Shown: positions 20,547 through 46,804 of the stretch, piece by piece
Layout of the letters: every line of letters starts with the position of its first letter
Position numbering within the stretch: the stretch's first letter is position 1
From: Candidatus Hermodarchaeota archaeon
GTDB lineage: Archaea; Asgardarchaeota; Hermodarchaeia; Hermodarchaeales; Hermodarchaeaceae
Assembly: GCA_016839365.1 (NCBI GenBank)
Contig: JAEOUH010000047.1
Location: 18,152-82,151, forward strand
Direction: 5' to 3'
DNA length: 64,000 nt
Program-made: the position numbers and the translations under genes
The notes under the pieces: generated by a model
What the model was told of the DNA's origin: nothing
What the model saw: the letters and a program-made list of their open reading frames with translations, nothing else
Databases searched by the model: none

Positions 20547-21995
20547 ATGAAGGAAAAATTAAAGCAGCAAGACGAGTTTCGCTGGTGGCTTGACAAATCA
20601 GCGCGTCCTCGCATGAACGTCGGGGCAAAGATAATCGGTTCGAAAGAGATCATCAATACCTTAGAGGACGCAGCTGTTGAGCAACTAACCAACGTAGCAA
20701 CGCTTCCTGGTCCAATTGAACCGGTTCTGGCCATGCCTGACGCTCATTGGGGATATGGGCTTCCGATGGGAGCCGTTGGCGCTTTTGATGCTGAAGAGGG
20801 GATTATTTCCGCAGGGTGTACAGGTTTTGATATCAACTGTGGCGTCCGCCTCATTCGCACTAATCTTAGTGTTGAAGATGTCCAACCCAAGTTACAACAG
20901 CTAGTTGAGGAGCTATTTAATCGAGTTCCTGCGGGAGTCGGTTCTCAAGGTAAAATTCGATTAAGTGATAGTCAGTTTAGTGATGTTATTCGGTGGGGAG
21001 CTAAGTGGGCGATTGATAATGATCGGGGGGTACCAGCGGATTTAGCCCATTGTGAGGAAGGAGGTTATATGGAGGGAGCCGCCATGCAGGCACCTCAAGT
21101 TAGTGAAAAGGCACGACGTCGCGGACGTCCACAACTTGGTACGCTTGGAGCAGGAAACCATTATCTAGAGGTTCAGAAGGTTGAGAAAATTTTTGATGAA
21201 CCTGTTGCCAAAGTCTTTGGTCTGGAGAAAGGGCAAATAGTGGTGATGCTTCACTGTGGATCCCGTGGATTTGGCCATCAGATTGCAACCGATTATTTAG
21301 AGAGTATGGCTGTAGCAGTTAAGAAATATAACATATGGCTTCCAGATCAACAACTCGTCTGTGCACCTGCAAACTCTCCTGAAGGGCAGGACTATTATGC
21401 TGCGATGAAGGCAGCAGTGAATTTTGCCTTTTGTAACAGACAGGTTATGACCCATTGGATTCGACAAGGTTTTGAAGCGGTCTTTGGTCGAGATTGGGAA
21501 TCGCTGGGGATGCACCTTGTTTATGACGTGACGCATAATATCTGCAAGTTCGAAACCCATGAGGTGAATGGATTGAAACGCGACATGTATTTGCATCGGA
21601 AAGGTGCGACGCGCGCGTTCGGGCCAGGCAACCCCAAAATCCCTGAAGACTACCGATCAGTTGGTCAACCCGTCCTAATCGGTGGCTCAATGGGAACCGC
21701 ATCCTATGTTCTAGTTGGCACAGAACAGGCAATGAAAGAAACCTTTGGATCCACCTGTCATGGAGCAGGTCGAGCAATGTCTCGAAAAGCAGCGATTCGC
21801 AAGTATCATGGACGAGATATCAAAAACGCACTTGAAGCCAAAGGAAAAGTGGTTCGTTCCATGGGTACAAAGATACTAGCTGAAGAAGCGCCCAATGCCT
21901 ACAAAGATGTCCATGTTGTTGTAGACTCAGTCCATGGCGCGGATATCTCACGCAAGGTCGCAAGTCAGATACCATTGGGTGTTGTGAAAGGCTAG
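20547..21995 (+). CDS. rtcB: tRNA-splicing ligase RtcB
   Basis: MPDAHWGYG, GFDINCGVR, GTLGAGNHY, HRKGATRAF, STCHGAGR, AEEAPNAYK. Confidence 0.97.
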   Translation: MKEKLKQQDEFRWWLDKSARPRMNVGAKIIGSKEIINTLEDAAVEQLTNVATLPGPIEPVLAMPDAHWGYGLPMGAVGAFDAEEGIISAGCTGFDINCGVRLIRTNLSVEDVQPKLQQLVEELFNRVPAGVGSQGKIRLSDSQFSDVIRWGAKWAIDNDRGVPADLAHCEEGGYMEGAAMQAPQVSEKARRRGRPQLGTLGAGNHYLEVQKVEKIFDEPVAKVFGLEKGQIVVMLHCGSRGFGHQIATDYLESMAVAVKKYNIWLPDQQLVCAPANSPEGQDYYAAMKAAVNFAFCNRQVMTHWIRQGFEAVFGRDWESLGMHLVYDVTHNICKFETHEVNGLKRDMYLHRKGATRAFGPGNPKIPEDYRSVGQPVLIGGSMGTASYVLVGTEQAMKETFGSTCHGAGRAMSRKAAIRKYHGRDIKNALEAKGKVVRSMGTKILAEEAPNAYKDVHVVVDSVHGADISRKVASQIPLGVVKG

Positions 21996-36780: not shown

Positions 36781-37371
36781 ATGGTAGAGGAAAACGAACA
36801 GCATTCTTCAGAAGAGGAGCGCCTTCCGCTTCCTGATGAGCCTATTCCAGCGAGATTAACTCGGGGAAAAGTAGTGGTTGAAGGTGAGTATGCGTCTGTG
36901 CTCTATGAGGCGGGGTATTATGGTACGATCAAGGGTGAGCAGAAATTAGAACTTGAGCCCGAAGAAGCGCTCTTATTGGCTCGGCGACAGCGTATAGCGG
37001 TGAGTCTGCCACAAAAGGAGGTGCTGGAATTTTCTTCGCTGCTGATGCGCTTATCAGAGGGGCAGCCGGGACTTTGGACTCGTTTTCTTGTATACAGTGA
37101 TCTTCGAAGCCGAGGGTATGTAGTGCGGACGGGGTATGGGAAAGGATTGTTGTTCCGCGTATATCCAAGAGGAGCTAAGATCAATGAGGCAACTGCTCAG
37201 TATTTTGTTTGCGCGATTTCCGAGGGCTCTCCCTTGAAGGTGGAAGAGCTGGATGCGTTTAGCAAACAGGCGAAACGTAACCGGAAGAAGTTGATGCTTG
37301 CTGTGTTAGACCGGCAGGGGGAGACGACGTACTACCTTGTGTCTCCTGCTGATATTGTTGCGGAAAAATAG
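36781..37371 (+). CDS. endA: tRNA-splicing endonuclease subunit, probably the structural (non-catalytic) subunit
   Basis: YYG, EEALLL, FLVYSDLRSRGYVVRTG, RKKLMLAVLD...TYY; catalytic His position reads ATA. Confidence 0.85.
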   Translation: MVEENEQHSSEEERLPLPDEPIPARLTRGKVVVEGEYASVLYEAGYYGTIKGEQKLELEPEEALLLARRQRIAVSLPQKEVLEFSSLLMRLSEGQPGLWTRFLVYSDLRSRGYVVRTGYGKGLLFRVYPRGAKINEATAQYFVCAISEGSPLKVEELDAFSKQAKRNRKKLMLAVLDRQGETTYYLVSPADIVAEK

Positions 37372-43908: not shown

Positions 43909-44328
43909 ATGTGCCCCCTACGTGAAGCGACCCAAGCGAAGCAGGAGCGACTGGAAGAGCGTTTTGTAAAAGGTGTTCAGCTCTTGATTAACCTCTCGGA
44001 AGACGGGGTAACAATAGTAGTAGAGGGGATTAAGGATATCACTGCACTACGGGGATTAGGACTGAGTGGACCTATTTACATGCTTGCGGGTCACAGTGTC
44101 GTTAGTTTAGCTGATGAATTGGCTAATATTCCTCGTTTACTCATCCTATTTGATTTTGATCGACGGGGAGGGCAATTGACAAGACGACTAACTGATCAAT
44201 TAGAAGGGCGAGGGGTCTCAATACTTCATCGAGAAAGGCACCAGTTAAGGCGAGCGTTTTGTTGGCGTGTGAGGGTAATTGAGGGACTGAAGGGAATTGA
44301 GAAAACTCCGAAAGGCACAAAATTTTAA
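43909..44328 (+). CDS. small Toprim-domain protein
   Basis: IVVEGIKD...LFDFDRRG Toprim motifs; upstream of dnaG. Confidence 0.85.
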   Translation: MCPLREATQAKQERLEERFVKGVQLLINLSEDGVTIVVEGIKDITALRGLGLSGPIYMLAGHSVVSLADELANIPRLLILFDFDRRGGQLTRRLTDQLEGRGVSILHRERHQLRRAFCWRVRVIEGLKGIEKTPKGTKF

Positions 44329-44354
44329 TGTGGCTCATTCGTGAGGCTAACTGT

Positions 44355-44451
44355 ATCACAATTACCAAATTACCTAATCATCATCACAAATCACTTCAAA
44401 GTGGCGTTATCAATATCACACGCCCGCACTTACATATCACAAATCATTTCA
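44355..44451 (+). repeat. direct repeats upstream of dnaG (ATCACA x4; ATCACAAATCAYTTCA x2)
   Basis: ATCACA at 44355, 44383, 44415, 44436; 16-mers at 44383-44398 and 44436-44451 differ at one base. Confidence 0.6.
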
Positions 44452-44464
44452 CAAGGTGACGATT

Positions 44465-45764
44465 ATGGGAACAAATGCAGAAGGTACTGGTACTACGAAG
44501 TATTGTATTCATGGTAAAATCGAGATAGATGGAGTAGTTGAGACCCCCGATGTTGTAGGTGCTCTCTTCGGTCAAACGGAGGGCCTACACTTCATATCGG
44601 CGATGTGAAGGGGTAATCGGTGAAGATTTAGATCTAAGAGAATTACAACAGTCGGGGCGGATTGGTCGAATAAAAGTCGAGCTTCACACTGAGAGTGGAA
44701 AATCAAAGGGCACTATCACTATCCCATGTAGCCTAGATCGGACGGAAACTGCAATCCTTGCTGCAGCAATGGAAACAGTGGACAGAGTTGGTCCTTGTGC
44801 GGCTAAAATAACCCTTGAAAAACTCGAGGATGTCCGCGAAGAAAAGCGGCAACAAATCGTAAATCGTGCAGTAGATTTGCTACGGGATTGGGAAGGGGAA
44901 ATCTCTCCAGATTCTCAGGAAATGACGGATACGGTTCTTCAACAGGCACGTACTGCAGAGATTATCAAACTCGGCAAAGAAAAGCTGCCTGCAGGGCCGG
45001 AGGTAGAGATATCAAAGACCATTATCATCGTAGAGGGTCGAGCAGATGTCTTAGCCCTGTTGAGATCTGGTGTCAAGAACGCTGTTGCAGTTGAGGGGAC
45101 ATCGGTTCCCAAATCTATTGCTGACATTGCCAAGGGGAAAACCGTGATTGCATTTCTCGATGGAGATCGTGGTGGGGATCTAATTCTAAAGGAGCTTGCA
45201 CAAACCATCAAGGTTGATTATGTGGCTAGAGCACCTACTGGTAGAGAGGTAGAAGAACTCACTCACAAAGAGGTTACTAAAGCTCTCCGTAATAGGATTC
45301 CAGCAGGGCAGATTTTAGGAAAAGCGCCAGCTAAGGCGAAGCCAAAGGAGAAGAAGCGTACCCGTCGGACCCCCGAGAAGATCAAGAAACCGCGTCGCAC
45401 AACAACGCGTACCACCTCTCGCATTACCACACGAACGAAAGTTGAAGCAAAACCAGAGCCAAAGGTGAAGGATTTGGGAATCCCAGAGCCGGTGCTTGAT
45501 TCGGCTCAAAAGATTCAACGGACGATGATGGCAGTCATCATGGACGAGAAGTTTAAGCAATTAAAGGAGACTCATGTGGGTGAACTTGCTAACGATTTGC
45601 AGGAACTTGATAAGGCTAAAGTGCTTATCCTTGATGGCGTTGTAACACAACGCCTTATTGATATTGCCGAAGATCGTGGCGTCGAATTAATTATTGGGGT
45701 GCGAGTTGGCAATATTGTGAAGAAACCGGCGAAAATGCGTATCCACACTTTCGATGAACTGTGA
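44465..45764 (+). CDS. dnaG: archaeal DnaG (primase-like, exosome-associated); join(44465..44588,44617..45764), 423 aa after splicing
   Basis: AAGGTGA RBS + ATG 44465: [41 protein letters not shown], continuing in another frame as [18 protein letters not shown]...VEGRADV...FLDGDRGG. Confidence 0.92.
44589..44616 (+). other. predicted 28-nt BHB intron in dnaG mRNA
   Basis: GCCT-AC|A-CTTCATATC-GGC-GATGTGAAG-GGGT-AA|T; excision restores frame and CTA CTC GGT GAA GAT (LLGED). Confidence 0.85.
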
Positions 45765-45868: not shown

Positions 45869-46141
45869 ATGAAGCTCATTCGAATCCTACAGGTTCTTGG
45901 CATTATCTTCCTGTTAGCGGCAGGATTCGTTGCCATTACGAACCTGGTTCTGGATATTCCATGGGATCAAGCGTCAGCAATAATTCTCCTTTCTTATTTG
46001 CTCATTTGTGGTCTGAGTTTCGGCATAACAGGTCTTATGAGCGACAATCCTGAGAGAACCCGAAGACTGTTGGTCGAATGGTTTATTGTTGTGGCAGCGA
46101 TTCTTATTTGGGTCGTAGGAGTGTACGCTTTACTTCCTTGA
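45869..46141 (+). CDS. small membrane protein (3 TM)
   Basis: Hydrophobic ORF directly upstream of atpD. Confidence 0.55.
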   Translation: MKLIRILQVLGIIFLLAAGFVAITNLVLDIPWDQASAIILLSYLLICGLSFGITGLMSDNPERTRRLLVEWFIVVAAILIWVVGVYALLP

Positions 46142-46150
46142 GGGATTACT

Positions 46151-46804
46151 GTGTCTGAATCGGTCGGAATCATTGCAGGAGTTCGCCCGACACGGATGGA
46201 ATTACTCACCCTCAAAGAACGAAGAGAACTAGCCGCGCGAGGTTATGAACTGCTCCGTGAGAAGCAAGATGCGCTTGTTCGTGAATTCTTTACAATTCTA
46301 TCAGAGGCAAAGAAATTCAGAGAAGAAATGGAATCAACTCTTGCTGAAGCTTATGTTTCATTACTTAACGCAAAATTAGTTGAAGGCGGAGCAAAACTCG
46401 AAGAACTTGCCTTGGGAGCAAAAAGCCCACTTGATTTTGAAGTTGAGACACGAAATACGATGGGTGTTACGGTTCCAATTTTTAGAATCACAGAGCAGGA
46501 AGAATCAGTTCAGCTGCATTACAGTCTGGCAGGAACTTCTGCTACTGTAGATAAAGCGGCCCAAAAGGTTCGATTGGCGCTAGATAAGGTTGTACGACTC
46601 GCAGAGATTGAGGCAACGGTTAAACGACTTGCAGCGGAAATTGAGAAAACGAAACGGCGCGTCAATGCACTCAACTATGTGGTTCTTCCGCGAATTAACA
46701 ACACAATTCGATATATCGAGTTGATGTTGGAAGAACAGGAAAGAGAAGACCTCTTTCGGATGAAGCGAGTTAAAGCGATGCTTGAGCGAAAAGCAAACGC
46801 ATAG
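46151..46804 (+). CDS. atpD: A/V-type ATP synthase subunit D
   Basis: PTRMELL, GYELLREKQDAL, EIEKTKRRVNALNYV. Confidence 0.95.
   Translation: MSESVGIIAGVRPTRMELLTLKERRELAARGYELLREKQDALVREFFTILSEAKKFREEMESTLAEAYVSLLNAKLVEGGAKLEELALGAKSPLDFEVETRNTMGVTVPIFRITEQEESVQLHYSLAGTSATVDKAAQKVRLALDKVVRLAEIEATVKRLAAEIEKTKRRVNALNYVVLPRINNTIRYIELMLEEQEREDLFRMKRVKAMLERKANA

Follow-up and report, generated by a model that had tools for sequence, protein, structure and literature searches.

The dnaG gene of this Hermodarchaeota genome is very probably interrupted by an intron of the relaxed bulge-helix-bulge (BHB) class HBh', which lies within the coding sequence at positions 44589-44616 of the window (the whole stretch of DNA that was analysed, 64 kb) and would be spliced out of the mRNA by the endonuclease EndA and the ligase RtcB. 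An earlier note on this DNA had claimed that production of DnaG depends on EndA/RtcB splicing, and support for this claim is drawn here from the geometry of the motif, the register of the predicted cuts, the covarying conservation of the insert, the selection acting on exon 1, the splicing enzymes encoded by the genome and a second split gene, cbf5. Taken together, these features argue against frameshifting, bypassing, a pseudogene and an assembly error; it is from them that we infer the excision, that is the cleavage and ligation at dnaG and the enzymes responsible.

According to the proposed mechanism, GCCU of the exon would pair with GGGU of the intron in the pre-mRNA, creating a helix flanked by the bulge ACA, which is closed by a 9-bp hairpin, and by the bulge AAU. 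A heterotetrameric EndA would then cut after the second base of each bulge, and RtcB would join the exons and probably circularise the intron. The codon joined at the junction (C/UC, following CUA; the slash marks the junction) would restore a frame with a computed length of 423 aa and hence the whole of DnaG, which serves the exosome as its RNA-binding cap subunit, while an unspliced dnaG mRNA would yield only a 47-residue stub.

The layout of the split gene is as follows.

44453-44459, plus strand: Shine-Dalgarno-like AAGGTGA, read directly, preceding the dnaG start.
44465-44588, plus strand: dnaG exon 1, from the ATG at 44465, 41 codons and one base, with the end ...GQTEGL + C; its product is the start of the N-terminal RNA-binding domain.
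44589-44616, plus strand: predicted intron, 28 nt, present once in the genome; its removal restores the frame and a conserved motif.
44606-44608, plus strand: TGA, terminating the unspliced exon-1 frame after 47 residues.
44617-45764, plus strand: dnaG exon 2 (UC GGU GAA ... to the stop at 45762-45764), with the TOPRIM and C-terminal domains.

By direct reading, the 41 conserved codons of exon 1 are followed by HFISAM and then by the TGA at 44606-08, and the exon-2 part, which contains the TOPRIM domains, is placed in the +1 frame relative to exon 1. Excision of 44589-44616 produces GAG GGC CUA CUC GGU GAA GAU, which translates to EGLLGED; the same motif is coded at the same spot by intron-less Asgard dnaG genes, in an uninterrupted 54-nt stretch as against the 28 extra bases found here, and the predicted joined-exon DnaG would carry the junction-spanning peptide ...GQTEGLLGEDLDLR. 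All coordinates of the earlier note hold in this respect, namely the start with AAGGTGA and ATG 44465, the TGA at 44606 and the remainder of the gene in another frame, and the excision of 44589-44616 that it had derived from the bulge rule was reproduced base for base, with the EGLLGED of the intron-less genes as the outcome. A second intact dnaG was looked for in the genome and is absent, the gene being single-copy in the assembly (2.2 Mb, 84% complete). The intron sequence also has no second copy in the genome at up to 6 mismatches, and it is therefore not a repeated mobile element. Directly 5' of dnaG, an ORF of 139 aa (43909-44328, plus strand) has a weak Toprim_4 match (E 7e-4) that falls below the cut-off, placing a small primase-like protein beside the large one.

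The elements of the predicted BHB structure are listed below, where percentages refer to the alignment cells of the family that form pairs.

44582, plus strand: G of the outer helix h, in its sole pair, with C44618; an invariant G-C in 16 distinct sequences.
44583-44586, plus strand: 5' strand of the central helix H, GCCU, in exon 1, from the fold; 100% of cells paired.
44587-44589, plus strand: bulge 1, ACA, unpaired in the fold and invariant in the family; predicted cut at 44588/44589.
44590-44610, plus strand: inner helix h', 9 bp (44590-98 with 44602-10) with a 3-nt loop at 44599-44601; 95% of cells paired.
44611-44614, plus strand: 3' strand of the central helix, H', GGGU, in the intron, from the fold and the alignment.
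44615-44617, plus strand: bulge 2, AAU (AUU in three relatives); predicted cut at 44616/44617.

The minimum-energy and centroid folds agree on GCCU/GGGU, ACA, the 9-bp hairpin and then AAU, and the hairpin, the GCCT/GGGT helix and the bulges ACA and AAT that had been described from the letters are thus recovered in both. Read 5' to 3', the elements succeed one another as H, bulge, inner helix, loop, inner helix, H' and bulge, the same succession as in archaeal pre-tRNAs, with the 5' strand of the central helix in the exon and its 3' strand in the intron. On the other side of the balance, the z-score of the fold is modest (-1.6), and G-U accounts for two of the central helix's four pairs. The central 4-bp helix with its two 3-nt bulges on opposite strands keeps all four pairs in the 16 distinct sequences, and when a 100-nt segment was scanned by geometry only (4-bp helix, 3-nt bulges, ranked by helix length) the dnaG junction was ranked first in 17 of 18 family members, more often than chance would place it there, the exception carrying a U-U mismatch in its hairpin. 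A strict hBHBh' motif has both flanking helices; here the outer one consists of the single pair G44582-C44618, and the modelled motif belongs to the relaxed HBh' class and not to the strict one, so that the earlier note was right to describe a relaxed BHB whose outer helix is weak. As this helix amounts to one invariant pair only, no closed bulge is formed at the 3' cut site. The cutting rule applied to dnaG is that of cbf5 introns, whose bulges are cleaved between residues two and three (PMC2738675); cuts placed in this manner restore the frame and the motif in 18 of 18 genomes. Self-splicing introns of group I or group II were also considered and rejected, since 28 nt stand against a ribozyme core of hundreds of nucleotides and no Rfam match was obtained in 44300-44800 at E up to 1.

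A variable, covarying insert at the same codon of sister genomes had been named as a check of the proposal, and it was found in every one of the 17 related species with a dnaG match (14 from the same genus, 3 from its sister genus), which together with the genome itself makes 18 of 18. Within the genus the insert is always 28 nt long, and the three sister-genus species have lengths of 29, 29 and 31 nt; removing the insert always leaves the identical 18 codons. In the alignment, 96.9% of the pair cells form standard pairs, a share that drops to 39-55% if the partners are displaced by 1-3 columns. Changes on both sides affect three pairs of the inner hairpin (C-G to U-A, A-U to G-C, U-A to A-U), and the central helix shows changes on a single side that keep the pairing, from G-U to G-C in 6 distinct sequences and from C-G to U-G in 2. 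The loop columns of the intron vary freely, with up to 4 different bases, as the bulge ACA stays invariant. Compensatory change in the helices combined with drifting loops gives moderate support to a BHB, as the family members are close relatives and the covariation counts overstate the number of independent events. On these comparisons, the putative intron is a feature of the whole family and not unique to this genome, and other Asgard families often have putative introns elsewhere in dnaG.

Pairwise pN/pS across the 18 genomes amounts to 0.091 for exon 1 (last 33 codons) and 0.090 for exon 2 (first 100 codons), values by which purifying selection on exon 1 equals that on exon 2. This bears directly on the view that the gene is split or decaying, in which exon 2 alone would supply a truncated DnaG and exon 1 would be a remnant or encode a separate 47-residue peptide. 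That view draws on public annotations, which call only the C-part, the Hermod-group records P0002-P0055 being 'DNA primase DnaG' entries of 329-411 aa that either lack exon 1 or start from chance upstream codons, and on GTG 44559, which opens a 401-aa ORF in this genome. Decay is contradicted by the equal pN/pS of the two exons, and independence of exon 2 by its starts: no conserved start codon for exon 2 alone exists among the 18 genomes, GTG 44559 itself is not conserved, the exon-2 frame is closed by a stop 6 codons 5' of the junction with no start between in 11 of the 18, and the first start downstream lies 3, 50, 84 or 185 codons in. It follows that the 401-aa ORF is an accident of the sequence of this genome. 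The conserved motif that the break interrupts belongs, moreover, to the N-terminal RNA-binding domain, whose conservation is high in all archaea (PMC4227792). A split or decaying gene is consequently held to be improbable.

The truncated public records of the Hermod group are instead a systematic mis-annotation caused by the intron. It counts against splicing that no full-length DnaG of the spliced type was present for the Hermod family among 5.8 billion predicted proteins, where no product derived from cDNA was seen either; the predicted DnaG of close relatives, as well as of the relatives of a Loki-type carrier, is the C-part only in all cases. Since gene callers miss exon 1 and truncated DnaG is deposited, BHB-aware gene models are needed for these genomes.

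The same genome offers a second case on another contig, where cbf5 is split by a 40-nt insert (G000:C6, 12840-12879). This insert forms a clean BHB with the central helix CUGG/CCAG, the bulges AUA and AAA and a 5-bp inner helix, and its removal restores GIINLD/KPPGPTSHEVV. A genome-wide scan for BHB geometry combined with the merging of ORFs returned 7811 candidates, mostly chance matches at gene junctions; under stricter filters, dnaG and cbf5 were recovered and no further convincing case was seen in the genome.

For the wider phylum, 400 Asgard genomes were screened with an intact N-terminal part of DnaG, followed by targeted searches in which about 60 loci were fetched. Predicted BHB introns in dnaG occur in about a fifth of the genomes screened, at three positions within 35 nt, and the bulge rule restores the dnaG frame at two sites other than the Hermod one in about 60 other Asgard genomes. 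Site 1 (Q/T) lies 13 nt upstream of the Hermod site and is occupied in 52 genomes of one large family, labelled Lokiarchaeota or Promethearchaeota by NCBI, and in three further families. Its inserts are 29-43 nt long, with a central helix GGNC that pairs to the intron and bulges that are mostly AAA. At the third position of the Gly codon, covariation with the paired intron base runs through six pair types, and 94% of the cells are paired as against 11-55% when slid; these figures come from a fixed geometry, blind BHB ranking failing at this site, where palindromes in the exon score higher than the short inner helix of 3 bp.

Site 3 (D-I/V) lies 35 nt upstream of the Hermod site and 22 nt upstream of the Q/T site, and four Loki-type genomes (L168, L173, L174, L176; G209, G243, G184, G281) carry there an insert of 30-31 nt with the right geometry. 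Three of the four site-3 introns are clearly similar to site-1 introns of the same family (alignment scores 7-13 compared with a shuffle maximum of 5-8), which suggests that one intron may have been relocated by 22 nt within dnaG of the Loki-type family. No sequence similarity was detected between the Hermod intron and the Loki-type introns.

The enzymes that would be needed are encoded in the genome, two of them within the window.

20547-21995, plus strand: RtcB RNA ligase, 482 aa (PF01139, E 8e-171).
36781-37371, plus strand: EndA paralogue 2, 196 aa, probably the non-catalytic beta subunit (PF01974 match).

In the 196-aa paralogue, the catalytic His is replaced by Glu and the loop insert is missing; further matches of this paralogue are to the structural subunits 3p1z_A, 3ajv_A and 3iey_B. 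The alpha subunit, 186 aa and encoded on another contig, G000:C43, at L111:1474-2034, aligns free of gaps to the alpha subunit of Aeropyrum pernix (3p1z_B, E 6e-46), keeping the catalytic histidine of GIDHS and a Lys aligned with K44 of the Crenarchaea-specific loop. Judged by these matches, the genome encodes an EndA of the type suited to relaxed motifs, formed by an alpha subunit with the His and the loop lysine, a residue linked to broad specificity, and a beta subunit without the His, in addition to the RNA ligase RtcB. An (alpha-beta)2 EndA with this loop cuts relaxed motifs, and Asgard archaea have such enzymes (PMC5829648). The presumed non-catalytic EndA subunit and RtcB share the 64-kb window with the split dnaG, and the catalytic EndA lies elsewhere. 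ARAGORN detected only 34 tRNA genes in the genome, of which 19 contain introns, and no gene at all for the amino acids Ile, Lys, Gln, Pro or Trp; probably many tRNA genes of this genome are hidden by non-canonical or multiple introns, and the low count fits a lineage with heavily interrupted tRNA genes (PMC11291895; preprint 10.64898/2026.10.13.758758).

A different removal route, by another endonuclease or by a cut without religation serving as an off-switch, is given about as small a chance as the split or decaying gene. It gains from the 3' site, which is not a closed bulge, and from EndA cleavage being a prediction here. It is opposed by the register of the EndA rule, which is exact at three independent dnaG sites and at cbf5, and by the presence of both an EndA with the broad-specificity loop and RtcB among the encoded proteins; the selection on exon 1 further implies that the exons must be rejoined, which speaks against a cut without religation.

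Translational recoding is still less likely than either. Here the ribosome would shift frame at the hairpin or hop over the 28 nt, in the manner of the gene-60-type bypass, and no splicing would occur; a stable hairpin and a nearby stop, the TGA at 44606, are indeed features of some recoding sites. A programmed frameshift site was rejected, as there is no slippery heptamer 5' of the hairpin and no single direction of shift: inserts of 28 and 31 nt are 1 mod 3 and those of 29 nt are 2 mod 3, which would require opposite directions within one family, so that only excision fits both. A frameshift would moreover interrupt the best-conserved motif by about 10 foreign residues, and the overlap open in both frames spans about 2 codons in 11 of the 18 genomes. 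Nor is a shift of frame the feature that all dnaG introns have in common, as two of them at the other sites (L162 and L173) are 30 nt long with an in-frame stop. A bypass of the T4 gene 60 type, with its matching codons and its stop after take-off, was likewise rejected, because no codon before AUC GGU would serve as a landing site matching the take-off codon CUA (GUA at best), because CUA is followed by CAC and not by a stop, and because the product would read L-I-G against the conserved L-L-G. Both kinds of recoding leave the conserved 4-bp helix, the 3-nt bulges and the same geometry at two other sites unexplained.

That the insert arose as an artefact of sequencing or assembly, or as a mobile mini-insertion of recent date, is scarcely credible given that it is present in 18 separately assembled species of the family, that 17 DNA runs from 10 studies among the matches listed hold 68-99% of the words of the stretch, and that no second genomic copy exists within 6 mismatches.

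With regard to transcripts, small parts of the stretch are present in two metatranscriptome runs from the source study. The contigs of RNA libraries that fall on it, one of about 200 nt from each of two metatranscriptome runs and from a third, doubtful one, cover 45350-45550, 46030-46200 and 44794-45000; the coverage of dnaG is confined to 44794-45000 and 45350-45550, and none of these contigs reaches the junction. When JGI metagenome contigs were searched for exact copies of the predicted spliced junction, one match was obtained, L185, which was rejected as a spliced transcript because it is the intron-less dnaG of an unrelated archaeon having the same 32 bases (L185:167-198). One DNA run, X3, holds a chimeric scrap of the stretch only.

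Splicing by EndA and RtcB, as preferred here, has its nearest known counterpart in the BHB intron of cbf5 pre-mRNA in the Crenarchaeota, namely Desulfurococcales and Sulfolobales (PMC2738675, in which Watanabe 2002 and Yoshinari 2006 are cited). In both cases a short intron sits inside a coding sequence (16-44 bp there, 28 nt here), the motif is a relaxed BHB in which a heteromeric EndA cleaves each bulge after its second residue (a prediction in the case of dnaG), and gene callers mis-annotate the gene as frameshifted or truncated. The cases differ in the gene, dnaG, and in the phylum, Asgard (Hermodarchaeia), in that the splicing of dnaG is a prediction from the genome sequence, and in that dnaG has predicted introns at three sites across Asgard families. 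Archaeal pre-mRNA splicing is stated in PMC2738675 to be confirmed for no gene besides cbf5, and no published report of a dnaG intron was found in the searchable literature, in agreement with the earlier note, whose author knew cbf5 as the established case and no description in dnaG. The HBh' introns of tRNA genes, as classified by Marck and Grosjean in Crenarchaeota (Thermoproteales) and Asgard archaea, share the motif class, the enzymes and the occurrence in intron-rich lineages (PMC5829648; PMC11291895; preprint 10.64898/2026.10.13.758758). They differ in their host RNA, since the RNA is an mRNA in dnaG, where the excision must restore the frame and competes with translation.

A likeness to Ire1/RtcB splicing had also been put forward. 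Ire1-dependent splicing of HAC1/XBP1 mRNA in eukaryotes is non-spliceosomal and proceeds by two endonucleolytic cuts in stem-loops; the XBP1 intron has 26 nt, its removal shifts the frame, and RtcB is the ligase in animals. Ire1 is unrelated to EndA, it recognises 7-nt loops and not bulges, and the splicing that it carries out is regulated by stress. The likeness stands as an analogy of mechanism and does not extend to membership of one system.

If spliced as predicted, dnaG would be a second host gene, conserved and single-copy, for tRNA-type splicing inside an archaeal coding sequence, and the intron lies in the archaeal phylum closest to eukaryotes. A bolder reading, which we consider rather doubtful, is that the first 45 or so codons of dnaG form a BHB hot spot, where introns would have been gained at least twice and would also move, and that splicing would gate the supply of DnaG to the exosome cap, the composition of which would follow EndA/RtcB capacity. 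If the gating were real, tRNA-type mRNA splicing would be a routine, possibly regulatory layer of expression in Asgard archaea. The three positions within 35 nt, the presence or absence at species level and the apparent relocation could in any case provide a tractable system for the study of intron gain, movement and precise loss. In the Loki-type family f9, dnaG is split in 56 of the 125 genomes with an exon-1 match, and species of a single genus may or may not carry the intron (genera g10 and g62), a patchiness that implies repeated precise loss or gain. One genome, G265, contains one intact and one split copy of dnaG, perhaps on account of a mixed bin.
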